This document shows positions 3,060 to 62,841 of a DNA stretch of 64,000 nt, piece after piece; position 1 is the stretch's first letter; every line of letters starts with the position of its first letter. Both the position numbers and the translations under genes were made by a program. The DNA is from an uncultured Methanosarcinales archaeon. Its GTDB lineage: Archaea > Nanobdellota > Nanobdellia > Woesearchaeales > ARS49. The stretch covers positions 419,694-483,693 of the forward strand of contig CAYGVI010000003.1 in assembly GCA_964353335.1 (NCBI GenBank). The letters run 5' to 3'. A model generated the notes under the pieces. It searched no databases and was not told the DNA's origin. It worked only from the letters and a program-made list of their open reading frames with translations.

Positions 3060-3764
3060 ATGGCTGATTTTGCCCACATTGTTGCTGATTTGAAGAAAGC
3101 GATTGAAAGCGCACGCAAGGAAAGCATTTCTTTGGCTCCTGAAAAAGCAAGCGGGTTCAAGGATTTCACAGCACAAAGGCGCGAACAGCTGAGAAGGACT
3201 ATTTTTGCAGGATTAAGCACACTCACAAATGAATCAGCAGGCGTTCTTCAGGGCAAAGCAAGCAAAATAATTCAGGAAATGCAGATTATGCAGGATTTGG
3301 AAAAGCTTGACAAGCTCGCTGACGAACTTCTCACGCTTGTTGCAGATGATGACTCGCCCCAAAGCGCGTTAATGCTGAAAAAGCCAAGGGTTCCTTTTGA
3401 AATTCACGATGAAATCCAGGCAGACATCCAGGAAATACACCGCTGCATGGAAAACCAGTGCTTCAGGTCTGCAGTTATCCTGTGCGGCAGGGTTCTTGAA
3501 ACAGCACTGCACCGCAAATACTTTGACGTAACAAAAAATGATTTATTGGAAAAATCACCAGGAATGGGTCTTGGCAATTTAGTAGCAAAGCTTTCAGAAC
3601 AGGGAGTCTTGCTTGACCCTGGTCTTGGAAACCAAATTCATCTAATCAACCAGGTCAGAATCCACAGCGTTCACCAGAAGCAGGACGCATTCAAGCCCTC
3701 AGAAGCCCAAGCTCAGGCAATAGTCTTGTACACGATTGATGTCTTGCAGAAATTATTCGCCTAA
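3060..3764 (+). CDS. HEPN-domain protein (DUF4145/Apea-like) with N-terminal coiled-coil
   Basis: C-terminal RIHSVH gives an Rx4H HEPN motif. This is preceded by a conserved helix (FRSAVILCGRVLETALHRKYF) typical of DUF4145. Confidence 0.5.
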   Translation: MADFAHIVADLKKAIESARKESISLAPEKASGFKDFTAQRREQLRRTIFAGLSTLTNESAGVLQGKASKIIQEMQIMQDLEKLDKLADELLTLVADDDSPQSALMLKKPRVPFEIHDEIQADIQEIHRCMENQCFRSAVILCGRVLETALHRKYFDVTKNDLLEKSPGMGLGNLVAKLSEQGVLLDPGLGNQIHLINQVRIHSVHQKQDAFKPSEAQAQAIVLYTIDVLQKLFA

Positions 3765-6284
3765 TTTCTTAAATTCATCAAGGTCTTTCCTGAACCGTTC
3801 TATTGTTTTTCCAATGAATTCAGGCTGTGTCTGAAGAATTTCAGATGTTTTTGCAACAACATCGCCTTCGTATTCATCTTTGGAAACAAGGGCAAACCAG
3901 TCTGAGTTAATTGGCTGCTTCTTAGACGCTGCCTTTCGCGCTTTTTTCCATTTTTCAAACAATTCCTGAGCTCTTCCAGGCACTTGTGATGGTTTGCAGT
4001 CCAAAATCTTTGCAATTTCAGACGCCCTGTCTTTTTCCTGTGAAATTACTTTCTTCGCAGCCTCGCCAGCAGCAAAATAAAGCCTTACAACACCGTCTTG
4101 CACCTTGTTTGTCTTGAGAATCTTGATTTGCTCTGCTTCAGAGGTGTTGTTCAGGTGAGTTCCTCCGCAGGCTTCAACATCAACTCCCTTGATTTCAACA
4201 ATCCTTAACTGTTTTCCTGGTACTGCGCCGCCCTGATAGATTGCAACTCCGTATTTCCGCTCAGCTTCTTCGCGGGCAACAAGCATTTTGATGACTTCTG
4301 CCTTCTTTTTGATGATTTTGTTTGCCTCTTCCTCAATGCGCGATAATTCCTCGTCGGAAACTGTCTGATAATGAGTGATGTCCAAATATGCCTTGTCAAT
4401 GTCTTTTTTCGCGCTTGCCTGGTTGCAGTGCGGTCCAAGAACGCGCCTTGCAGCTGCATTTACAATGTGCGTGCTTGTGTGGTGCTGTGAGAGCTGTTTC
4501 CTGCGGCTCAAATCCACCATTCCCTTGACTGTGTCTCCTTCCTTGAAGTCTGGCTTTTCAGCAAGAACGTGAACAATTACCCCGCCCTGCTTGAAAGCGT
4601 CAACAACATGGCCTTTGTTAAGTGTTCCGTGGTCAGCTACCTGGCCGCCAGACACAGGATAAAAGTCAGTCTTGTCCAAAACAACATTGTTTCCGATAAT
4701 CTTGAGCACTTTTGCAGAAAACTCTTTTGGCTTCCAGTCGCCCCAGTAAAGGATTTCTGTGTCAGGAATATCGTCGAGGTCAAGCTTTTCCTCTCTTTCA
4801 GTTTGTGTTTCCTGCTCTTTCTTGTCGCCTTCATGCAGTTTTGCAACCATTGAATAGAAATTCTTTGGGAAATTGACTTTTTTGCCCTGCTTTGCAGCTT
4901 CCTCAGCAACAAGTTCAGGCGCAATTCCCTGGCTGTCATAGAGCTCAATCAGTTCTTTTGTTGTAAGTTCCTTTGCAGCAATCTTTGCGAGCATTGCCTT
5001 TGTCTTTTCCTGTGTTGCCTTGTACCTTAATTTCTCAACTTCAATGATTTTGCGGACATTTGGCAATTGCTCAGACAATTCCGGGAACAATGGCTTTAAT
5101 TCTGAGGCGTGCCAGTCGCACACATCGCAAAGGTCAACCTTCCAGTTGTACTTGTCAATAAATCCGAGAGACCTGCGAAGAATAACCCTGAGGTTGTACA
5201 TTCCGCCAACATTGCTTGGCAAAGCGCCGTCAGTGAGCGCAATCAATAATGCCCTTGCATGTTCTGCGATTGCATAAACCGCGGCAATAGGCTCAACGCG
5301 CGTCCTTAACTCAGTTACATCAATTCCGATTTTGGATGCAACCTCTTTCCAGGCTTTGTCAAGGTCAGCGACTTCTCCAACATTAAGATACGGAGTCAAT
5401 GGCAAAAACTTTTTCATCAGTTCCTGGTCTATTTTCACCCCAGTTGCCTTTGTTAATTTCTTCAAAACTTCTGGGAATGTTGCGTCATAGGCAGTTGCTG
5501 TTCCCTGTGTGAACCAGGCAGCGCGTTCCTGCCCCTGCCCCATGTCAAGCACTTTAATCGAAAGTTCCTTGCTTCCAGTCGGAGTTGCTTCATACTGCAT
5601 GTAGACCTGGTTGCTTATTTCCAAGCCGTGTGAGAAGAATTCCATGCAGGGTCCGAAGTTTCCTCCTCCTGCCCAGCCGTCTTCGTGTATTGTCAAATCC
5701 TCGAGCTTAAGGCCCATTCCTTCTGTGAGCCAGGTGATGTGGTGGCTTATGTACTTGTTTATGTCATAGTCTTTTGGAGCGAAAAAGCCGTGCTGCCCCA
5801 TCATTACGAAGCAGACAAAGTGCCCTGTTATTCCGACATTGTCAATATCGCCGAATCTCAATGAAAACTGTGGTATTACCAGCGGGTTTGCAGGTGGCTT
5901 TACCTCTCCTGAAACAACATATGGCTGGAATGCAGCTATGCTCGCAATGGTGAACTCCGTGGTAGGATTCCATCTGGCGACCACTGGATAGCGTTTTATC
6001 GGAGTATAGCCCAGCTTGCTGTATACCTCTGCAAACTTCTCCCAGACGCCAATATAGCTTAATTTGTGCCCTTGTGGCTTTCCTATGAACCTGAAGCCGC
6101 CAGAACACGCAGGGTCTCCGCATACCTTTTGCTCGGGGTGTAAAGTCCAGAAGTTTCTCTTGCACTTTGTGCAGCTGTGCCTTCCAAAGCCAAGCTCCTT
6201 CAAAGTCTTTGTCGGAAAATACTTGTCAGGGCTTGCGCTTGCTGTTTTCTTGAACTTGTCCTTCAGCTCTGCATCTGTTGGCAT
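3753..6284 (-). CDS. alaS: alanyl-tRNA synthetase (archaeal type)
   Basis: 843 aa. N-terminal zinc-binding Cys pattern, class II core, and an editing domain HxxxH (HHTSTHIV) plus a CxxxH-like region. Confidence 0.9.
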   Translation of the reverse strand: MPTDAELKDKFKKTASASPDKYFPTKTLKELGFGRHSCTKCKRNFWTLHPEQKVCGDPACSGGFRFIGKPQGHKLSYIGVWEKFAEVYSKLGYTPIKRYPVVARWNPTTEFTIASIAAFQPYVVSGEVKPPANPLVIPQFSLRFGDIDNVGITGHFVCFVMMGQHGFFAPKDYDINKYISHHITWLTEGMGLKLEDLTIHEDGWAGGGNFGPCMEFFSHGLEISNQVYMQYEATPTGSKELSIKVLDMGQGQERAAWFTQGTATAYDATFPEVLKKLTKATGVKIDQELMKKFLPLTPYLNVGEVADLDKAWKEVASKIGIDVTELRTRVEPIAAVYAIAEHARALLIALTDGALPSNVGGMYNLRVILRRSLGFIDKYNWKVDLCDVCDWHASELKPLFPELSEQLPNVRKIIEVEKLRYKATQEKTKAMLAKIAAKELTTKELIELYDSQGIAPELVAEEAAKQGKKVNFPKNFYSMVAKLHEGDKKEQETQTEREEKLDLDDIPDTEILYWGDWKPKEFSAKVLKIIGNNVVLDKTDFYPVSGGQVADHGTLNKGHVVDAFKQGGVIVHVLAEKPDFKEGDTVKGMVDLSRRKQLSQHHTSTHIVNAAARRVLGPHCNQASAKKDIDKAYLDITHYQTVSDEELSRIEEEANKIIKKKAEVIKMLVAREEAERKYGVAIYQGGAVPGKQLRIVEIKGVDVEACGGTHLNNTSEAEQIKILKTNKVQDGVVRLYFAAGEAAKKVISQEKDRASEIAKILDCKPSQVPGRAQELFEKWKKARKAASKKQPINSDWFALVSKDEYEGDVVAKTSEILQTQPEFIGKTIERFRKDLDEFKKLGE

Positions 6285-7154: not shown

Positions 7155-7219
7155 ATGTCGGAAACCTATGGTTTTCGAGCATGCTCAAGAACCACATAGC
7201 TGAAGCTAGTGGTTCTTGA
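7155..7219 (-). repeat. family A element copy 2 (shorter variant plus extra 11-bp hairpin CAAGAACCAC/GTGGTTCTTG), upstream of the zinc-ribbon gene
   Basis: The reverse complement reads GTGGTTCTTGAGCATGCTCGAAAACCATAGGTTTCCGACAT. Confidence 0.6.
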
Positions 7220-7249
7220 CAAAAAAAGAAAGAGATAAAAAATAAAAAT

Positions 7250-15228: not shown

Positions 15229-15403
15229 AGTCCTTCGTGAAACAGCAGTTGGTTTTTAAAGGTTATTGTTTTAAACCGAAAGCACTATTGCATGCAAAGG
15301 TTAATAAACCAAGTTCCCGATTTAATTCACCATGAACACGGCAAGGCAATTCAAGGCATAGCATCTTCTTGATAGTCATTAGCCTGCCTGTCGGTCACCC
15401 AAA

Positions 15404-29070: not shown

Positions 29071-29173
29071 GCAAGCTTTAATTACCCCTTCTCGTTAATC
29101 TTTGTTGTCAAGAACCACCTGCTACCGCAGGTGGTGTGGTGACTATGATGAACAATTACGCAAGGAGGAGCAA

Positions 29174-29257
29174 GTGGTTCTTGAGCATGCTCGGAAACCG
29201 CTGGTACTCCTCCCACAGGTTTAAGCCAGAGGTGTCCGCACAAGCGGTTTCCGACAT
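29174..29257 (+). repeat. conserved structured 5' element, family A copy 1 (GTGGTTCTTGAGCATGCTCGGAAACCGCT...AGCGGTTTCCGACAT), immediately upstream of the PIN gene ATG
   Basis: Seen in sequence. Shares a 19-nt identical block with the copy at 7155-7219 and has a stem (GGAAACCGCT/AGCGGTTTCC) homologous to the copy at 62924-62990. Confidence 0.6.
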
Positions 29258-29650
29258 ATGAAAACAATTATCCTTGACACAAACTTCCTTGTAGACTGCC
29301 TTTCGTGGAAGGTTGACTTCTTCAGGGAGCTTGAGAGGATTATCCCATTCACTTACCGGCTGATGTCAGTTGACAAGACTCTTGACGAGCTTGATACCAT
29401 AATCACCAAGGGAAAGCCAGATGTCAAAATCGGTGCAAGGCTCGCAAACCAGCTCATAATGAAAAAGCGCATCGGAATAATAATTACAGACAAAAAAGGC
29501 TACACAGACACGCTTATTCTCAACGCCGCTGACAAGGACACGATTGTCGCAACACAGGACCAGGACCTGAAGCGCAAGCTGAAGGCAAAGGGAATTCCTG
29601 TTGTAATCATACGCCAGAAAAAATATCTGGAAATCATCCCCAAACCATAA
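29258..29650 (+). CDS. PIN-domain ribonuclease (Fcf1/Utp24-like)
   Basis: MKTIILDTNFLV N-terminus with the acidic residues expected of a PIN domain. 130 aa. Confidence 0.55.
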   Translation: MKTIILDTNFLVDCLSWKVDFFRELERIIPFTYRLMSVDKTLDELDTIITKGKPDVKIGARLANQLIMKKRIGIIITDKKGYTDTLILNAADKDTIVATQDQDLKRKLKAKGIPVVIIRQKKYLEIIPKP

Positions 29651-29740
29651 CCTTTAAAAAGCAACCTCTGTCCTCTCAGTCTATAATGAGATGCTTCGGC
29701 TTCTTTGGCTCGGGGCATTGATGCAAACCGAGGAAACAAA

Positions 29741-30521: not shown

Positions 30522-31112
30522 ATGGACATTTCAATAAGCAAGACAAATGAAAATCCGTATCTTCAAAGGAAGGAAGTGCATGGCGAAATAAGCTTTACCG
30601 GCGCGACTCCTTCACAGAAGCAGTTGGCTGACGCTTTGGCGACAAAGCTCGGTGCAAAGGCTGAGGCAATATTTATCGTGCATGTTTTCACGAACTTCGG
30701 CAGCCAGAAGGCAGGTTTCGAGGCTCACATTTACCCAAGCAAGGAACTGCTTGAGAAAGTTGTAAAGCTTGGCAAGAAGGCAAAGGAAAAGATAGCAGGC
30801 AAGGCAGCTCCAGGAGCAGCCCCTGCAGCAGCGCCAGCAGCGGCTCCGGCAGCAGCACCGGCACCAGCGCCAAAAGCAGAAGAGAAGAAAGAGGCGCCCA
30901 AGAAGGAAGAGCCTAAAGCAAAGCCGGCAGAAAAGCCAGCTGAAGCAAAGCCTGCTGAAGCTAAGAAGGAAGAGCCGAAGAAAGAAGCAAAGCCTGCTGA
31001 AGCTAAGAAGGAAGAGCCGAAGAAAGAGGAGCCAAAGAAGGAAGCAAAGCCGGCAGAAAAGCCAGCAGAAGCTAAGAAAGAAGAACCCAAAAAGGCAGAG
31101 GTAAAGGTCTAA
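30522..31112 (+). CDS. rps24e: ribosomal protein S24e fused to a ~100-aa K/P/A/E-rich low-complexity tail
   Basis: The N-terminal 95 aa (NPYLQRKEVHGEISFTGATPSQKQLADALATKLG...FGSQKAGFEAHIYPS) match S24e. The tail is built from AAPAAAP and AKPAEAKKEEPKKE repeats. Confidence 0.75.
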   Translation: MDISISKTNENPYLQRKEVHGEISFTGATPSQKQLADALATKLGAKAEAIFIVHVFTNFGSQKAGFEAHIYPSKELLEKVVKLGKKAKEKIAGKAAPGAAPAAAPAAAPAAAPAPAPKAEEKKEAPKKEEPKAKPAEKPAEAKPAEAKKEEPKKEAKPAEAKKEEPKKEEPKKEAKPAEKPAEAKKEEPKKAEVKV

Positions 31113-36473: not shown

Positions 36474-36815
36474 ATGGACAAAAGAGGTTCGATTGAGCTT
36501 ATAATTCTGGGCTTGGTCGCGGTGATTGCACTTGTCGGACTTGTCATGCTTTTCTCAGGCAAGATTACTGGAGAGGCAACAGGGCCAATGACACGGGACA
36601 CATTCCCAACATCAGAGCCATTCCGCATTGTACAGCCAGGCGGATATGCCTGCGGATGCGACGGAGTATGCGCATACAGCAGCAAGATTGTCAGGGCTTC
36701 GCCAACAGTCACATCAGCGATTGCAGATGGAGAATCCACCTGCAGGACCATGCTTGAATCAATCTGCGGCGGACAGCCGATACTAAGATTCAACTTCGGC
36801 TGCGGAACAAGGTAA
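36474..36815 (+). CDS. small Cys-rich secreted protein with class III (pilin-like) signal peptide, family member
   Basis: MDKRGSIELIILGLVAVIALVGLVMLFSGK N-terminus, with a GAGAGG-type ribosome-binding site upstream. Confidence 0.5.
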   Translation: MDKRGSIELIILGLVAVIALVGLVMLFSGKITGEATGPMTRDTFPTSEPFRIVQPGGYACGCDGVCAYSSKIVRASPTVTSAIADGESTCRTMLESICGGQPILRFNFGCGTR

Positions 36816-38488: not shown

Positions 38489-38761
38489 CTACTTCAGAGC
38501 CTTTGCTTCGTCCTTGAACTTCTCAACTGACTTGGCTATTCGCTTTATTGCTGCAGAAACAGTCTTCTTTGGGTCTGCGCCGTCTGTCTCAACAATAAAT
38601 GTCGGGATGTTAATCAGCGGGTGCTCAACATTGAATCCTGCTGCCTTGACGTGCTCGTCATTCCAAAGCTCTTTCTTGAGCATATTTGCCATTGTGGAGC
38701 CGTCTCCCTCTATGTTGAAAACAAGCCTGCTCTTCTTTTCCTCAAGAATCTTGACTTCCAT
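38489..38761 (-). CDS. rpoL: DNA-directed RNA polymerase subunit L (Rpb11 homologue)
   Basis: Internal start MEVKILEEKKSRLVFNIEGDGSTMANMLKKELWNDEHVKAAGFNVEHPLINIPTFIVETDG (90 aa). The upstream part of the 182-aa track ORF is non-coding promoter sequence. Confidence 0.7.
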   Translation of the reverse strand: MEVKILEEKKSRLVFNIEGDGSTMANMLKKELWNDEHVKAAGFNVEHPLINIPTFIVETDGADPKKTVSAAIKRIAKSVEKFKDEAKALK

Positions 38762-38780: not shown

Positions 38781-38835
38781 CTGTTTAAAAAGCTTGCGTA
38801 GCAAGCCTCGTCAGCTCTGCTGACCGCTAGCTTGC
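38781..38835 (-). promoter_or_regulatory. family B two-hairpin promoter-proximal element upstream of rpoL (includes TTTTTAAA TATA-like box ~23 nt before the ATG)
   Basis: CTGTTTAAAAAGCTTGCGTAGCAAGCCTCGTCAGCTCTGCTGACCGCTAGCTTGC. The two stems are GCTTGC/GCAAGC and GTCAGC/GCTGAC. Confidence 0.55.
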
Positions 38836-38879
38836 GTGTGGAAAAGATTATATACGGATTTGGCATTCGAGTTAATACG

Positions 38880-39218
38880 ATGAACAAGAAAGCATCTGTT
38901 GAGCTGGTTATTCTCGGCATAGTCGCGGTTATTGCGCTGGCAGGGCTTATTTTGCTGTTCTCAGGAATGACAGGCAAGGCAGCAGAGCCGTTTTGCATTG
39001 ACACTGATAACGGGCTGAATTTCACTGTAAAGGGCACTGTTTATTCCCTTGACCGCCCTTATGTTGACACGTGCGTGAATGCCCACGGCTCAGAGGCTCC
39101 AAGCGGTGATGGCTTGTGGGAATTTATCTGCAAGGATAACAAGATGAAGAAGATATATTACAGGTGCCCCCGTTTCTGCGTAGACGCAATATGCAGGCCC
39201 AGCAAGTTCTTGCAGTAA
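38880..39218 (+). CDS. pilin-like signal peptide Cys-rich secreted protein, tandem family member 1
   Basis: MNKKASVELVILGIVAVIALAGLILLFSG N-terminus. C-terminal motif YRCPRFCVDAIC. Confidence 0.55.
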   Translation: MNKKASVELVILGIVAVIALAGLILLFSGMTGKAAEPFCIDTDNGLNFTVKGTVYSLDRPYVDTCVNAHGSEAPSGDGLWEFICKDNKMKKIYYRCPRFCVDAICRPSKFLQ

Positions 39219-39244: not shown

Positions 39245-39580
39245 ATGAACAAGAAAGGCTCAATAGCATTGGTTATTCTCGGGATTATTGCGGTTATTGC
39301 GCTGGTCGGAATGATTTTGCTGTTTACCGGCAAGATAACAGGCAATGCTGCGATCCCGCCGTGCACTGATTCAGACGGAGGCTTAAACTATCCTGTTAGG
39401 GGGATTGTTACTGTTGTCGGCGACTATGGCGTTCCTGTCAAATTCATAGACCAGTGCGAACGTGCAATGTCTGGCGTTGCGAAAGTTTACGGCCTTTCAG
39501 AGAACTATTGCGCTGGCAGCAAAAGGAATTTCGCATATTACACCTGCCCGCGCGGCTGTCTCAATGGCGCCTGCATTTAG
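39245..39580 (+). CDS. pilin-like signal peptide Cys-rich secreted protein, tandem family member 2
   Basis: MNKKGSIALVILGIIAVIALVGMILLFTGKITGN N-terminus. C-terminal motif YTCPRGCLNGACI. Confidence 0.55.
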   Translation: MNKKGSIALVILGIIAVIALVGMILLFTGKITGNAAIPPCTDSDGGLNYPVRGIVTVVGDYGVPVKFIDQCERAMSGVAKVYGLSENYCAGSKRNFAYYTCPRGCLNGACI

Positions 39581-39648: not shown

Positions 39649-40011
39649 ATGAACAAGAAAGGCTCAGTTGCATTGATTATTCTTGGAATTGTGGCAGTTA
39701 TTGCTCTTGTCGGGCTCATATTGGTTTTCACAGGCAAAGGGTCTGTAACAGGAAATGCGCTGGCAACAAGCTGTACTGATTCAGACAACGGTAAAAACTA
39801 CAAGTCAAGGGGCTCAGTGGGTCTGGGAATATCTTCATTTGAGGATACTTGCCTGCGCTTTCCCAGTGTTTCATATGACGGGCCTGGAAATTTTGTTAAA
39901 GAAGGGCTTTACCTTGCAGAAGGATATTGCGAGAATGGCAATATTCTGCGATTTGATGTTTACACCTGCCCGCGCGGCTGTGTTAACGGCGCCTGCATTC
40001 AGGATTTTTAA
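39649..40011 (+). CDS. pilin-like signal peptide Cys-rich secreted protein, tandem family member 3
   Basis: MNKKGSVALIILGIVAVIALVGLILVFTGK N-terminus. C-terminal motif YTCPRGCVNGACIQDF. Confidence 0.55.
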   Translation: MNKKGSVALIILGIVAVIALVGLILVFTGKGSVTGNALATSCTDSDNGKNYKSRGSVGLGISSFEDTCLRFPSVSYDGPGNFVKEGLYLAEGYCENGNILRFDVYTCPRGCVNGACIQDF

Positions 40012-40073: not shown

Positions 40074-40406
40074 ATGAACAAAAGAGCTTCAGTGGAATTG
40101 GTTATTCTCGGGCTTGTTGCGGTCATCGCGCTGGTCGGAATGATTTTGCTGTTTACAGGCAAGATAACAGGAAATAGCGTGGGAAACTACGTTTGCACAG
40201 ACACAGAGCGGGACATGGACTTTTACACAAGGGGAGTCACGACTTATGCAAGCGCCCCCTTTACAGACACCTGTGCAGATAACAACAATGTCGCGATTGG
40301 AGGTGCCGGACCCAAGCTTATTGAGTATTACTGCAGGGACGGAGCCATGTATACCAACACCCAAAGGTGCATAAATGGCTGTGTGAACGGCGCGTGCATT
40401 ATTTAA
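40074..40406 (+). CDS. pilin-like signal peptide Cys-rich secreted protein, tandem family member 4
   Basis: MNKRASVELVILGLVAVIALVGMILLFTGKITGN N-terminus. C-terminal motif RCINGCVNGACII. I preferred the ATG at 40074 over the track's GTG at 40065 by paralogue alignment. Confidence 0.55.
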   Translation: MNKRASVELVILGLVAVIALVGMILLFTGKITGNSVGNYVCTDTERDMDFYTRGVTTYASAPFTDTCADNNNVAIGGAGPKLIEYYCRDGAMYTNTQRCINGCVNGACII

Positions 40407-49414: not shown

Positions 49415-51638
49415 GCCTTCTTAGCACAGTTATTCCTGCAAGCGCATTGATGGCTGCATCAAGCTGGTCTGCAAGCCTGAGAAGCTTGTTTTTGACTGCA
49501 TCTGTGATTATCTGGCCTGACACCATCACTGTCTTTTTCTTTCTGAGAGTCTCAATAACTTCCTTGTTGATTGTTTCCTGCAGGTTCACAAGCACAGGCA
49601 GGACTGCTGTTTGCTCATATCTCTCAAACGTCTTGAGGTTTTGTTCCAGCTCCCTGAGTGTCCTTGATTCTGCAGGGCTGTTTTGCATCATTAGCCTTGT
49701 GCGGACATGCTCTGCTGCAGTGTGAATCTCATTGATTATTCTCTGTGAAACACTCGCAGCATCAATATCAAATCTTGCCTCTTCAACAGCCTTTTGTATT
49801 GCGTCCAAAAATGCCTGTTCTGATTTTGCGTCTATTGTCTTTTGGCCGCTCTTTCTCTTTACTGATTCTGCAAATACAATTCTGTTAATAACATCGCGCG
49901 TCTGGGCTGCGAGGCTGGCCAGGAGGCGCCTTTGTTTGTCGATGTTTCTAATTATCTCGTCAATTTCAGGAACAAGAACTACGGCTGCAGGCGGCTGGAC
50001 AGGGGCTGGCGCGCGCCTTCTGGCAGGTACCGGTGCTTGAACCCTTGCTGCAGGCGGCACAGCAACCCTTCCTGCGATTGCCGCTCTTCTCTCGTTAATT
50101 GCAGCCTGCAATGCCAAAATGCCGCTTTCAACAGCATCAAGTGCCTTTTTGACAAGCCCTTCGAAAATCTCTTTCCAGTGCTTTATCTCTGCCTGGATTT
50201 CCTTGACCTGCGCCGTGTTGAATGTGGATGCTGCAGTGAATGCCTGGCACTTGGCAGTTATCTGGCCCAGCTTGTTTTCAAGCCACTCAATCAGTTGAAT
50301 CACTTCGCGTCTGAGCGCCTCTGCCTCTTCTGGCGTTCTTGCCGCGCCTTCTTTTCTGATAAACGCCCTGATTGAATTTTTCATGGCATTAATGTCCACT
50401 TCATTTATGCTTTTTATCGCATCATCGTAAAGCGACTGCAGCTGCGCGTCTTTAAGCACAAGGAGGTGCTTTTCAAGGCGCAAAATTATATCATTTAATT
50501 GCTTCAATGAATTCTCAAGGATTTGGAGATCTCGCTTCAGGAGCGCAAGCTTCACAAGCAGTTCTGCCTGCTCAGGCCTTCCTGCAAATGTTTTTACTTC
50601 CTTCTCAATCGCTTCAACCATCTGCCCATACTGCACCATGGTGGTCCTGATTTCACTGTAATACTTCTTGAGAATTGCTTCTATCGCTGCTTTCAGGCCC
50701 ATTATCTTGGCAATGGCTGTCTTTTGTCCCTGTATTGCCTTGATTATTGATTCAATCCTTACAATAAGGTCAGTGATGTGCGCTTCTGTGTTCTTGGAGT
50801 CGCCCTGCTCAGCTGACTTGATTGCATTTTCCGCGTCTGCAATTGCAAGGTTCAATGCCTGCAGGATGTTTGCATTTCTGATATCAATATCATTGGTGGC
50901 ATTGCTTGCGGAATTGACATTCACATTGATGTTGTTAATATCCTGCCCAAGTCGTTCTCCAGGGTTTGGCGGAACAGGGGGTACAGGTCCTGGTGGTACG
51001 GGTGGAACAGGTTCTGGCGGGACAGGTTCAGGTGGAACTGGTTCTGGCGGTTCAGGTGGTCTTGGTTCTGGCGGGGTTGGTCTAGGTTCTGGTCCTGGTG
51101 CCCCTCTGAGCTTTGGCAAAAACAGCCAGAGTATGAACAAAAAGATGAGTATTGGCGCGAGAAGGGAGAGGAAGCCGAACAGGTTCCTTACTGTCTCGCT
51201 GTTTGATGTCACAAACCACGAGTCCATAATCATCCACGCCAGCAGTGCGCAGATTAGCCCTGCGACAAGCGGTGGAACATGGAGCTTTTTCAGCATGACG
51301 AAAAGTACTGCCCCAAGCAGGGCGGCAGATGCGACTGTTGTCAGCCAGTATTGGAACAAGGTTATTCCTGCTGCGCGCAGTGCGAACGCCGCAGAGGCGC
51401 CAAGGATGATTCCAAGGATTGCGCCGAACTTCCTGCCTGCGCCTTTCTTTCCTTCACCAACTCCGCCTTCGCCCCTTTCAAAAATCATAGAGCCGAGAGG
51501 CGCGAGAAGCGCAGCGAACAATCCGCAAAGGAGTATGAGGTCAACAAAGAAGCTGAATCCAGGGTTGCTGGCATACATTTGGGGGATGTCAGGCAAAGAA
51601 CTCATCAATGGTATGTTCTGGAGTCCTGCGCGTACCAT
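49383..51638 (-). CDS. multi-TM membrane protein with polyproline (PEPRP/PEPVP repeats) linker and long coiled-coil domain (751 aa)
   Basis: Four to five N-terminal TM helices, then PEPRPTPPEPRPPEPPEPVPPEPVPPEPVPPVPPGPVPPVPPNP, Asn-rich and coiled-coil segments, and an Ala/Pro/Arg-rich stretch. Confidence 0.6.
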   Translation of the reverse strand: MVRAGLQNIPLMSSLPDIPQMYASNPGFSFFVDLILLCGLFAALLAPLGSMIFERGEGGVGEGKKGAGRKFGAILGIILGASAAFALRAAGITLFQYWLTTVASAALLGAVLFVMLKKLHVPPLVAGLICALLAWMIMDSWFVTSNSETVRNLFGFLSLLAPILIFLFILWLFLPKLRGAPGPEPRPTPPEPRPPEPPEPVPPEPVPPEPVPPVPPGPVPPVPPNPGERLGQDINNINVNVNSASNATNDIDIRNANILQALNLAIADAENAIKSAEQGDSKNTEAHITDLIVRIESIIKAIQGQKTAIAKIMGLKAAIEAILKKYYSEIRTTMVQYGQMVEAIEKEVKTFAGRPEQAELLVKLALLKRDLQILENSLKQLNDIILRLEKHLLVLKDAQLQSLYDDAIKSINEVDINAMKNSIRAFIRKEGAARTPEEAEALRREVIQLIEWLENKLGQITAKCQAFTAASTFNTAQVKEIQAEIKHWKEIFEGLVKKALDAVESGILALQAAINERRAAIAGRVAVPPAARVQAPVPARRRAPAPVQPPAAVVLVPEIDEIIRNIDKQRRLLASLAAQTRDVINRIVFAESVKRKSGQKTIDAKSEQAFLDAIQKAVEEARFDIDAASVSQRIINEIHTAAEHVRTRLMMQNSPAESRTLRELEQNLKTFERYEQTAVLPVLVNLQETINKEVIETLRKKKTVMVSGQIITDAVKNKLLRLADQLDAAINALAGITVLRRPMPPVRPAQI

Positions 51639-54420: not shown

Positions 54421-54684
54421 TTATTCAATCTTGACTACTTCGCCGAGGCTTTGCCCTGGCATTCCTGTCTCGAAGATTGCCCTGACAGCTCCCTTGCCGC
54501 CGTGGATTGCAGCAATCTTTCCTTTCAGCTGCTTCTTGTTTTTGCCAGGGGATGTCCAGATTACTGTCTTTCCGACAAGGGCTTTTGCCTTGTCCTTGGT
54601 GTCAACAGTGTCGACAACAATTATCATGTGGTTTCCTCTCTTTCTTCGGAAAGTTCCCCTGAATGCACTTATTCTTGCTTCCAT
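54421..54684 (-). CDS. rpl35ae: ribosomal protein L35Ae
   Basis: About 87 aa with the pattern ...ALVGKTVIWTSPGKNKKQLKGKIAAIHGGKGAVRAIFETGMPGQSLGEVVKI. Confidence 0.65.
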   Translation of the reverse strand: MEARISAFRGTFRRKRGNHMIIVVDTVDTKDKAKALVGKTVIWTSPGKNKKQLKGKIAAIHGGKGAVRAIFETGMPGQSLGEVVKIE

Positions 54685-54704: not shown

Positions 54705-54760
54705 CTGTTTAAAAAGGTTGTGCAAGCAACCTTCGTCAGCTTTGCTGACCGCTAGCTTGC
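54705..54760 (-). promoter_or_regulatory. family B element copy 2 between the lrp stop and the rpl35ae start
   Basis: CTGTTTAAAAAGGTTGTGCAAGCAACCTTCGTCAGCTTTGCTGACCGCTAGCTTGC. Stem 1 has become AAGGTTG/CAACCTT, a compensatory change relative to copy 1. Confidence 0.55.
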
Positions 54761-55230
54761 TAGTATGACGACAGGGAAATCATTGTCTGGGTTTTGTCAA
54801 CGCCTGCCACATGGCGAAGCTTTCTGACGACAAATTCATTGAGCTCGTCAAGGTCTTTTGCGCGGACTTTTACAAGCATGTCTGCTCCGCCTGTGAGAAT
54901 GCTGACTTCCTCGACATCAGGCATTCCCCTGATTTCCTTTGCTGCGTCCTCCTGCTGGACTTTTCCTCCTGTCGGCAGGATGTATTCAAAAGAAACAAGG
55001 ATAAAAGCGAGGATTTGCTTGCCTGCTTTTCTCCAGTCAATGTCAGCAGTGTAGCGCCTGATTATGCCAAGCTGTTCGAGTTTTTTAATCCTGTTGTGCA
55101 CTGTTGTCGGCGGAAGCCCTGTTTCTTTCGCAAGGCTTTGCACTGACAGCTTGGAATTCTCCTTAATCAGTCTTAACAGCTTTTGGTCATTATTATCCAA
55201 TTTATTCATAAAAATGGAATAATATTCCAT
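54760..55230 (-). CDS. lrp: Lrp/AsnC family transcriptional regulator
   Basis: N-terminal HTH (DQKLLRLIKENSKLSVQSLAKETGLPPTTVHNRIKKLEQLGII) and a C-terminal RAM domain. Confidence 0.8.
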   Translation of the reverse strand: MEYYSIFMNKLDNNDQKLLRLIKENSKLSVQSLAKETGLPPTTVHNRIKKLEQLGIIRRYTADIDWRKAGKQILAFILVSFEYILPTGGKVQQEDAAKEIRGMPDVEEVSILTGGADMLVKVRAKDLDELNEFVVRKLRHVAGVDKTQTMISLSSY

Positions 55231-56499: not shown

Positions 56500-56726
56500 G
56501 TTTTTGCGCTCTCGTCGGGACAGAACTAATCATGTTTTGATTCTTTATGTGCGTTTTGCTAAAGATTTTCGACGATATCGGAGATTTTCCGGCAGAATTG
56601 TTCCTATCTTGTAGCCACTAAATAGTGGCTACAAACCGAAAGATTTATATAGGGGAAAATGCTATTTTACACGTATCGTGAGAGAAGCTTAAGATTTATA
56701 AGAAAGCTCATAAAGGTGTTATTAAA

Positions 56727-62731: not shown

Positions 62732-62841
62732 TAATGTTACTACTGTCAGGTTAGTATTAACCCCTATATAAATCTTTCTATTTTAACTACTGCGTGGGGG
62801 TAAAAGTATCTTTGTGTTTGTTCCCGCAAGGCTTTTAAATC

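Follow-up and report, generated by a model that had tools for sequence, protein, structure and literature searches.

A probable low-copy palindromic mini-insertion between the BRE-like and TATA boxes of rpoL and rpl35ae in a woesearchaeal archaeon

Introduction

The palindromic operators of archaeal Lrp/AsnC-family regulators, e.g., FL11 or LrpB, are A+T-rich dyads of 13 to 15 bp. For archaeal tRNA introns, Fujishima et al. are said to have proposed transposition between tRNA genes in Thermoproteales. Three types of small bacterial repeat also have to be considered. Repetitive extragenic palindromic (REP) sequences usually exceed 100 copies per genome and often form inverted pairs (PMC2817692). 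MITEs, the miniature inverted-repeat transposable elements, are detected by their terminal inverted repeats and target site duplications, and pneumococcal elements insert into one another; SPRITEs mimic a terminator composed of a hairpin and a T-run in regulatory intergenic DNA (PMC10969869). The subject of this report is a block of ~55 nt that is present twice in a 64-kb stretch of contig CAYGVI010000003.1, from an uncultured archaeon of the Woesearchaeales (hereafter the window, meaning the whole stretch analyzed). The two copies occupy 38781-38835 and 54705-54760 of the minus (gene) strand, just upstream of rpoL (RNA polymerase subunit L) and rpl35ae (ribosomal protein L35Ae), respectively.

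A preliminary description of this DNA suggested that the block is a shared operator, possibly of a regulon, or a conserved structured RNA. Comparison with related strains indicates that it is probably a recently spread, low-copy palindromic hairpin mini-insertion of 38 to 39 nt, lodged between the BRE-like box (BRE, TFB recognition element) and the TATA box of two consensus-type promoters. Gain, loss, tandem addition and recombination of units on the time scale of strain divergence best account for the sequences compared.

Results

Filled, tandem, remnant and empty sites in related strains

All filled sites read X0 - core - X' - loop - X1 - TTTTAAA, in which X stands for the BRE-like box that directly precedes the TATA box and X' for the complement of that box. 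The unit comprises an invariant hairpin core, AGCG-GTCAGC-nnn-GCTGAC-GA, with a 6-bp stem (P2), and then a second hairpin (P3) formed by X' and X1; the 21-nt core is AGCGGTCAGCnnnGCTGACGA. Two unit types were distinguished, alpha, AGCGGTCAGCAAAGCTGAC(G/A)AAGGTTGCT(T/G)GC(A/G)CAACC(T/C), and beta, AGCGGTCAG(C)(C/T)GAGCTGACCAGGGTTGTTTACACAACCT. The units of the window and the boxes upstream of them are as follows (related sequences are designated by L numbers).

38791..38828, minus strand: copy 1, one 38-nt unit, AGCGGTCAGCAGAGCTGACGAGGCTTGCTACGCAAGCT; no unit at the orthologous site in the closest relatives outside the strain cluster
38829..38837, minus strand: X0 of copy 1, the upstream copy of the 9-nt direct repeat ACGCAAGCT that flanks the unit, as read from the sequence; the empty L143 allele has one ACGCAAGCT directly before TTTTAAAT
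54715..54753, minus strand: copy 2, one 39-nt alpha-type unit, AGCGGTCAGCAAAGCTGACGAAGGTTGCTTGCACAACCT, from comparison with empty, two-unit and remnant relatives
54754..54760, minus strand: X0 of copy 2, the upstream BRE-like box GCAAGCT, overlapped by the final base of the TAG that ends lrp (54762-54760); this stop codon touches the copy

At rpoL, strains with an identical RpoL protein differ in unit number. The window and L040 (100% identical over 17.8 kb) have one unit, L042 and L043 have two, and L044 has one chimeric unit. Relatives whose RpoL is 93% identical and whose divergent-gene layout is the same have none: L143 and L144 read ...CCACACGCAAGCT directly followed by TTTTAAATAA, and L164 to L167 read ...CCATAAGCT followed by TTTTAAATAA. 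At the junction itself, ACGCAAGCT (L143/L144) or CCATAAGCT (L164 to L167) adjoins TTTTAAAT with nothing between. In L145 to L149 (RpoL 87 to 90% identical), the rsmE open reading frame (ORF) runs directly into ...CACAACCT followed by TTTTAAATA (also read as CACAACCT followed by TTTTAAAT), again without a unit. Relative to L143, 38 nt are inserted in the window, with the 9-nt direct repeat ACGCAAGCT on either side. The repeat is single copy in L143 and L144; its second copy in the window is the final 9 nt of the unit (38791-38799).

The rpl35ae site also varies. Among strains with identical L35Ae proteins, L004 has one unit, as in the window, while L002 has two in tandem (beta followed by alpha) and L005 has none, its lrp ORF ending ...TCACAAGCTTTTTAA with the stop codon within the TATA box. 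In L001 and L003, a bPH_2 gene is added and no more than the final 15 nt of a unit are left. Where L35Ae is 87 to 91% identical, L151 to L153, L156, and L157 to L159 are empty (...CACAA(C/G)CT followed by TTTTAAAC; the L157 allele is ...CATACTAACACAAGCT followed by TTTTAAAC), and L154 and L155 have two units, alpha followed by beta. Compared with the empty L151 site, CACAACC(C/T) is repeated in L002. Filled sites are flanked by a direct repeat of 8 to 9 nt. Because the units of a two-unit array are of different types and occur in both orders (beta and alpha in L002, alpha and beta in L154), the arrays are not simple local duplications.

The bPH_2-domain gene (150 amino acids [aa]; L001:9500-9952 and L003:1983-2435) stands between lrp and rpl35ae in strains that are ~93 to 94% identical to the window. 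The right boundary of this insertion falls inside a beta-type unit, of which TTGTTTACACAACCT alone remains.

Unit distribution did not agree with relatedness, given here as nucleotide identity to the window in flanking DNA.

L040: 100% identity, one unit at rpoL
L044: 99.4% identity, one chimeric unit at rpoL
L042 and L043: 97% and 96% identity, two units at rpoL
L002 and L004: 95% identity, filled at rpl35ae
L001: 93% identity, remnant at rpl35ae
L005: 84% identity, empty
L151: 82% identity, empty
L143 and L156: 80 to 82% identity, empty at both loci
L154: 76 to 78% identity, filled (alpha and beta)
L157: 74% identity, empty

The rpl35ae site is filled at 76 to 78% identity and empty at 80 to 84%. 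From these states, only the immediate strain cluster (at least 96% identity) has the rpoL copy, and the rpl35ae copy is patchy among roughly equidistant lineages and more widespread than the rpoL copy.

Anatomy and folding of the unit

The two copies share the layout GCAAGCT-AGCGGTCAGCA(R)AGCTGACGA-(hairpin)-TTTTTAAACAG; their similarity runs for ~55 nt, from GCAAGCT to TTTTTAAACAG, and ends at both edges. A 28-nt shared core, GCAAGCTAGCGGTCAGCARAGCTGACGA, matched the window only twice, at 38808-38835 and 54733-54760, with 0 matches expected by chance and none in any of 100 dinucleotide-preserving shuffles. The minimum-energy RNA fold of each copy consists of both hairpins and was compared with shuffles (copy 1, -22.5 kcal/mol, z = -2.8; copy 2, -20.6 kcal/mol, z = -2.3). 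The hairpins are located as follows, each from the fold and the alignment.

38810..38824, minus strand: hairpin P2 of copy 1, GTCAGC-AGA-GCTGAC; stem invariant over all units, loop variable
38791..38807, minus strand: P3 hairpin in copy 1, GGCTTGC-TAC-GCAAGCT, with the BRE-like box that adjoins the TATA box as its 3' arm
54735..54749, minus strand: hairpin P2 of copy 2, GTCAGC-AAA-GCTGAC
54714..54733, minus strand: P3 hairpin in copy 2, AAGGTTG-CTTGCA-CAACCTT, with the BRE-like box as its 3' arm

These results bear out the preliminary description as to the number, positions and strand of the copies and the presence of two hairpins in each, with P2 (GTCAGC/GCTGAC, its stem 2) the same in both. 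It had further argued that stem 1, here P3, changed by compensation, since the arms are GCTTGC/GCAAGC in one copy and (AA)GGTTG/CAACC(TT) in the other. Differing paired arms do exist, but the argument is weak. In an alignment of nine distinct units from related strains, 92% of P3 cells were paired and double changes occurred at 2 pairs only; two of the nine units are mismatched exactly at the pair that changed, and the covariation score was matched by shuffles in 104 of 500 trials. The 5' arm of P3 pairs equally well with the box copy upstream of the unit, and this alternative helix, X0:X', which would enclose P2, had 94% of its cells paired and a score reached in 4 of 500 shuffles. The weakness follows from the existence of chimeric units mismatched at that pair and from the identity of the 3' arm, which is simply the BRE-like box and has the same two alleles (AAGCT and AACCT) at empty sites. 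For P2, all cells of the six pairs were paired without covariation (five pairs invariant, one varying one-sidedly), and the loop read AGA, AAA, CGA or TGAG.

The X alleles, ..CAAGCT and ..CAACCT, both occur at empty sites as well, and copy 2 of the window ends in the AACCT allele, whereas its local box is AAGCT. At empty sites, the box is already part of a weak proto-hairpin (GATTGT-TTTGTC-ACAACC at the 3' end of lrp, TTTGC-CACAC-GCAAG at rpoL), with which the 3' half of the unit aligns and of which it looks, judging from the sequences, like a copy. The inverted pair X0/X' around the core is 6 to 7 nt long, but X0 is nothing other than the target sequence, and at the insert's true ends (AGCGG... 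and ...TTGCT) only AGC/GCT is shared.

The promoters

The start codons, at 38761-38759 (rpoL) and 54684-54682 (rpl35ae), lie 19 to 20 nt past ...AAACAG. All relatives examined, with or without a unit, retain TTTTTAAA and the BRE-like box ~20 nt before the ATG, and TTTTTAAA is, from this conservation, almost certainly the TATA box of both genes, as the preliminary description proposed.

38784..38791, minus strand: TATA box of rpoL, TTTTTAAA, at the same distance from the ATG in all relatives whether a unit is present or not; it doubles as the T-run after P3
54708..54715, minus strand: TATA box of rpl35ae, TTTTTAAA, from comparison with relatives and motif enrichment in the window

The motif AACCTTTWWAAA is enriched in the window (10 matches versus 2.4 expected); the TATA-proximal likeness of rpoL and rpl35ae is therefore that of the organism's common promoter type, which relatives that lack the hairpin unit also have. 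Since X1 reproduces X0, the BRE and TATA elements are unaltered by the insertion, and this intact regeneration of the core promoter explains why an insert before essential genes is tolerated. Gene conversion of the TATA-proximal AAACAG from rpl35ae to rpoL was also considered. Empty rpoL sites read AAATAA, which is suggestive but indecisive, as the whole spacer differs between these lineages.

In the unit-free orthologues of window ~54710-54765 (L005:150-175, L151:6790-6810 and L156), the lrp stop codon TAA lies within the rpl35ae TATA box (..CAA CCT TTT TAA AC), and the end of lrp and the rpl35ae promoter overlap completely. Further promoter-like pairs are shared within the window at 15242-15271 and 29642-29671 (AACCTTTAAAAA type) and at 56633-56664 and 62752-62783 (AAAGATTTATATAGGGG type).

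The core in other settings

The layout X0-core-X'-loop-X1 recurs in two further settings. In the Nanoarchaeia sequence L009, a long hairpin, GGCAGCGCCAATC...GATTGGCTGGTC, encloses the core and an X'-loop-X1 arm. It stands between two co-directional genes, of which the upstream one encodes 356 aa; the element directly precedes TTTTTTATAAATA, a Shine-Dalgarno-like box and an ATG. In L160 (GCA_974447225.1) the outer hairpin is uninterrupted, and the L009 copy looks, on this sequence comparison, like a nested insertion. In L160, this hairpin (GGCAGCGCCAAC-TGTG-GTTGGCTGGTC) is found near tRNA-Leu.

In three other Woesearchaeota, ARAGORN with introns allowed gave a tRNA-Leu(CAA) whose anticodon loop has an intron of 46 to 47 nt holding the 21-nt core (L006:1883-2011; L046:~3610-3782, minus strand; L137:~3370-3540, minus strand). 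The intron starts ..CTCAAG, then C-AGCGGTCAGCGGAGCTGACGA.., and ends in a near-repeat of the exon end (CTCGAGAG, then AGCTG). The syntenic tRNA-Leu(CAA) of L160 (4297-4380), beside the genes for RNase J and PCNA, is without an intron. Comparison of PCNA gave no link between the tRNA contig L046 and the organism of the window, and led only to this intron-less relative. Default tRNA and Rfam scans missed the intron-bearing gene, and in L160 partial copies of the tRNA-Leu 5' end (GCGCCGGTGCCGG) and 3' end (TCTGTCCGGCGCA), within 4225-4300 and 4380-4470, flank the gene, as at integration sites of mobile elements.

Because L009 and the tRNA loci were found through their possession of the core, the covariance-model E-values (1e-6 to 1e-7) overstate their independence. 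The extra flank that they share with the element (CAAGC in the tRNA, GGCT in L009), together with the common layout, nevertheless suggests from sequence that these copies are truly its kin.

Census of the unit

No unit beyond the two was found in the window by core-pattern search. When 311 kb of related archaeal DNA were searched with a covariance model of the unit, the only matches were the rpoL and rpl35ae sites, the three tRNA-Leu introns and L009, all else having E values of at least 0.08. The pattern AGCGGTCAGCNNNGCTGACGA had 34 matches in a search of one genome per species, mostly in high-GC bacteria (taken as chance) and two in DPANN archaea (L006 and L009). A slightly wider pattern had 98 matches in metagenomes, which for this clade comprised only the rpoL and rpl35ae loci and one tRNA contig. 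Viral contigs scanned with the core pattern gave one unrelated high-GC match, and a viral or plasmid origin was dismissed on this result. Rfam had no match at gathering score in the whole window; around copy 1, a permissive search yielded nothing beyond SNORD50 and microRNA matches below threshold, taken as chance, and a search of L006, L009 and 13 bacterial look-alike loci gave nothing relevant. The window contains no tRNA or transfer-messenger RNA gene by our scans, and a full-text literature search for the core sequence found no paper.

The bacterial look-alike is a sequence of ~45 to 50 nt, GCTCCCC-loop-GGGGAG(C/A)(G/T)GTCAGCGAAGCTGAC(T/A)GAGGGG, on metagenome contigs L045, L047, L059, L064, L065, L081, L086, L092, L104 and L140, at L161:1501-1531 (a Deinococcus aetherius plasmid), and in L162 (Rhizobium) and L163 (Vescimonas). 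It is single copy per replicon, intergenic, spread over several phyla and without an Rfam match, with a conserved part of only ~50 nt. No tie to the archaeal core was established, including in the plasmid records; the search pattern itself had selected these loci.

Two other repeats of the window are separate from the unit. A second pair of shared intergenic hairpins, GGTTTTCGAGCATGCTCAAGAACCAC ... GTGGTTCTTGACAA, occurs at 7170-7226 and 29101-29199, with ~50 nt inserted in the loop of the second copy; it is probably the "Family A" of the preliminary description. In-frame 15-nt periodic repeats lie in long ORFs at 30870-31100 and 50950-51080, encoding Lys/Glu/Ala/Pro-rich and Gly/Thr/Ser-rich segments.

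Genes at the two loci

The genes downstream of the copies are those named in the preliminary description, and the names borne by homologues put the organism with the Woesearchaeota-like DPANN archaea. The neighborhood is as follows.

38489..38761, minus strand: rpoL, RNA polymerase subunit L, 90 aa; Pfam RNA_pol_L_2 match on the identical protein, homologues named subunit L
38880..39218, plus strand: divergent gene for a small secreted protein, with its own TATA box, TTATATA, at ~38849-38855
54421..54684, minus strand: rpl35ae, ribosomal protein L35Ae, 87 aa; Pfam PF01247 (Ribosomal_L35Ae) and homologues
54760..55230, minus strand: lrp/asnC-family regulator gene (ORF with HTH_AsnC-type and AsnC_trans_reg matches), co-directional and directly upstream of copy 2

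Copy 1 thus stands between two divergent promoters, the TATA box of the 38880-39218 gene lying ~12 nt beyond X0. At the other locus, the order TctA-Lrp-L35Ae is kept in all relatives, unit or no unit.

The divergent gene belongs to a plus-strand tandem family (36474-36815, 38880-39218, 39245-39580, 39649-40011 and 40074-40406) encoding cysteine-rich proteins of ~110 aa with a pilin-like N terminus, MNKKGS..LVILG..AVIAL.G.ILLF. These genes are inserted on the opposite strand between rsmE and rpoL, and the number of paralogues varies with the strain. In L145 to L149, rsmE and rpoL are neighbors, 19 nt apart.

Discussion

Origin and spread of the unit

The reading that we consider probable, a recently spread mini-insertion, is consistent with the presence/absence and copy-number polymorphism of the unit, the flanking direct repeat, the nested and intron-like occurrences of its core elsewhere, and the lack of further copies in the DNA searched. 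The ~21-nt core would have arrived together with a duplication of 9 to 20 nt of the target. One part of the unit would then be the invariant core with P2, and the other an inverted and then direct copy of the local BRE-proximal sequence (X'-loop-X, forming P3); the resulting site, X0-core-X'-loop-X1-TATA, would have its BRE and TATA boxes regenerated. Spread would have been by insertion, or by microhomology- or recombination-driven copying between similar promoters, rather than by selection for a regulatory site. The only plausible activity of the unit would be, at most, that of a dispensable hairpin and U-run terminator or insulator between the upstream lrp transcript and the downstream promoter, and the data require no function. 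Three routes are candidates: promoter-box recombination or gene conversion after a template switch, an enzyme-driven single-hairpin element with a target-complementary arm, and one old insertion with repeated precise loss.

Several considerations weigh against a recently spread insertion. Two genomic loci are unusually few for a mobile repeat, and no mobilizing enzyme, transposase or other, was identified, no genome-wide search for one having been made. The P2 stem and AGCGG flank are identical across lineages ~22% apart in flanking DNA, and in other genera, so that the core could, from this sequence constancy, be under selection, for example as a protein-binding palindrome. The patchy distribution can also be obtained from one old insertion and repeated precise loss across direct repeats. 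Both hosts are small information-processing genes, as a regulon predicts, yet both share the same consensus promoter; and an effect of unit number on transcription is possible.

Under the mini-insertion reading, an essential core promoter (BRE-like box and TATA box, with leaderless spacing) stays intact while the adjoining upstream DNA turns over between strains. The variation in unit number beside the BRE could supply natural alleles for studies of spacing and insulation in divergent archaeal promoters. We put forward, as a speculative extension that we regard as doubtful, that the 21-nt core is a tiny insertion module of Woesearchaeota-like archaea, which enters DNA with a short target duplication and a complementary arm and lands in promoters, hairpin loops and the anticodon loop of tRNA-Leu(CAA), where the resulting helices would allow splicing as an intron. 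If so, it would provide a DNA-level route for the gain of archaeal tRNA introns. An active module would be among the smallest described in archaea, and, because its core is shared with a polymorphic tRNA-Leu intron, the origin of archaeal tRNA introns would be directly testable.

Alternative explanations

The alternative that survives best, though we think it unlikely to be correct, does without mobile machinery. In this account, the core was copied once from the tRNA-Leu(CAA) intron or another donor by microhomology-mediated template switching. Near-identical BRE/TATA boxes would then have recombined or undergone gene conversion, which carried it from the rpl35ae promoter to that of rpoL and from strain to strain, and arrays would have changed by unequal exchange. 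CAAGC precedes AGCGG both in the tRNA (anticodon loop, CTCAAGC-AGCGG) and in the element (CAAGCT-AGCGG), and GACGA is common to the 3' end of the core and the native 3' end of lrp (..CAGACGATGATTG..), which the 3' half of the unit resembles. Such copying would also fit the chimeric units (L042 uA/uB and L044), the restriction of the rpoL copy to strains at least 96% identical to the window when the rpl35ae copy is more widespread, and the AACCT end of the window's rpl35ae unit beside an AAGCT box. However, the microhomologies are short (5 nt), the syntenic relative L160 has no tRNA-Leu intron, a donor intron in this organism is only presumed, and an unrelated hairpin in another genus (L009) shows this architecture too, which suggests recurrent insertion and not a single accident.

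A selected cis-acting RNA is less probable. The hairpins and U5 run would act as a terminator or insulator (or 3'-end stabilizer) for the upstream transcript and shield the downstream leaderless promoter from read-through. At rpl35ae and in L009, the strand that carries the upstream co-directional gene (lrp and the 356-aa gene, respectively) does have P2, P3 and T5 in this order. Folding energies are low (-20 to -43 kcal/mol), with z values of -2.3 to -4.7, a stable hairpin, P3, stands directly before TTTTT, and P3 pairing is kept by double changes in most units. Empty alleles have the lrp stop codon inside the T-run and a weak hairpin only. At rpoL, however, the upstream gene is divergent and there is no co-directional transcript to terminate. 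Many lineages lack the unit, and P3 is mismatched in two of nine. A consensus terminator scan does not list the site, probably because the stem is extended by G-T pairing that consumes the first T of the run, and hairpin plus T-run sites are not enriched in the region (30 versus 22.7 expected). Termination in archaea depends mainly on oligo-T. A terminator for lrp at the rpl35ae locus, as suggested in the preliminary description, is a possibility.

The shared operator of the preliminary description is very improbable. A dimeric transcription factor, possibly the adjacent Lrp/AsnC protein, would bind the palindromes upstream of the BRE and TATA boxes and coregulate transcription and translation genes. 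P2, a 6-3-6 palindrome with conserved half-sites and a variable spacer, fits a dimer-binding DNA site and not an RNA hairpin; it lies just upstream of the promoters of two informational genes, and an lrp/asnC gene adjoins one copy. The strain data speak against this proposal. The unit is missing at orthologous promoters of genes whose products are 87 to 93% identical and in at least one strain with identical L35Ae, and among near-identical strains it is present in zero to two copies or as a remnant. The search for copies, proposed as a way to enumerate the regulon, found exactly two promoters with the site and no third in the window and the 311 kb of related DNA. The lrp-rpl35ae order is kept regardless of the unit, and the same core lies within a tRNA intron and within another hairpin. 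A conserved structured RNA, the other proposal, fares no better, as presence of the unit is not conserved among relatives. There is thus no evidence for a hairpin-marked transcription/translation regulon in this DPANN archaeon, a tempting false lead that can be set aside.

In IS200/IS605-type elements, guide/target pairings are ~4 nt and lie 5' of the hairpin foot, which weighs against a transposase-mobilized single-hairpin mini-element of the REP/IS200-IS605 (HUH Y1) type, in which P2 would be the recognized hairpin and X' the target-pairing guide, with insertion 3' of a sequence identical to the element's own 3' end mimicking target duplication and allowing head-to-tail arrays. We think such an element just as improbable as the operator: the invariant P2 stem with its free loop, the complementarity of X' to both flanking boxes, the head-to-tail arrays of different types in both orders, the precise excision-like empty sites and the copy nested in another repeat (L009) speak for it, but the copy number is very low, X0 pairs poorly with X' in L009 (hand count), and no Y1 transposase, RAYT or TnpB was found, none having been searched for.

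Other candidates were rejected. A CRISPR-like mini-array, with the core as repeat and X'-loop-X as spacer, is contradicted by the presence of at most two units and by "spacers" that are variants of one sequence and too short. The GTTRRRY/RYYYAAC boxes of an integron attC-like site are absent. On comparison by hand, the nucleotides that define a kink-turn, box C/D, a hammerhead core or group II domain 5 do not fit the P2 junction: tandem G.A, CUGA at guide distance and GAAA are all absent.

Comparison with known systems

The unit resembles archaeal bulge-helix-bulge tRNA introns in that the identical 21-nt core lies in the tRNA-Leu(CAA) intron, itself present or absent between relatives. Unlike those introns, the intergenic copies are upstream of the TATA box and so probably outside the mRNA, and their loss is seen at the DNA level. 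A bulge-helix-bulge at these copies was also rejected on structural grounds: by hand inspection, X0:X' is a continuous helix of 6 to 7 bp and not two 3-nt bulges around a 4-bp helix, and the empty site would not be regained from the sole bulge-like arrangement, CAAG/CUUG with CUA on its flanks. With Lrp/AsnC operators the unit shares a 15-bp dyad (6-3-6) with conserved half-sites beside a promoter and an lrp gene, but its presence at orthologous promoters is not conserved, its location is the 3' end of lrp and not the lrp promoter, and P2 is G+C-rich.

The small bacterial repeats are further parallels. P2 and P3 are short G+C-rich extragenic palindromes and, like REPs and the bacterial interspersed mosaic elements built of them, the unit is short (20 to 40 nt), extragenic, hairpin forming, located beside gene ends or promoters and strain variable; unlike them, it occupies two loci only, with units head to tail in one orientation, each flanked by a direct repeat of the target. 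Like MITEs, it is noncoding and intergenic, has inverted repeats, is present or absent according to strain and has one copy nested in another repeat, and its flanking direct repeat resembles a target site duplication (the 9-nt ACGCAAGCT at rpoL and CACAACC(C/T) at rpl35ae in L002). At 38 to 39 nt it is far smaller than known MITEs, its "terminal" repeat is the target sequence itself, and its copy number is very low (two in 64 kb and none further in 311 kb of related DNA); we know of no parent insertion sequence for it. Like SPRITEs, it mimics a terminator in regulatory intergenic DNA, but SPRITEs are bacterial and multicopy, while this unit is from an archaeon, its T-run also serves as a TATA box and the BRE is regenerated. 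By sequence, then, the unit appears to be a small palindromic repeat that falls short of the copy number of REPs, MITEs and SPRITEs and, in the case of MITEs, of their size and probably of true terminal repeats, while sharing features of all three.

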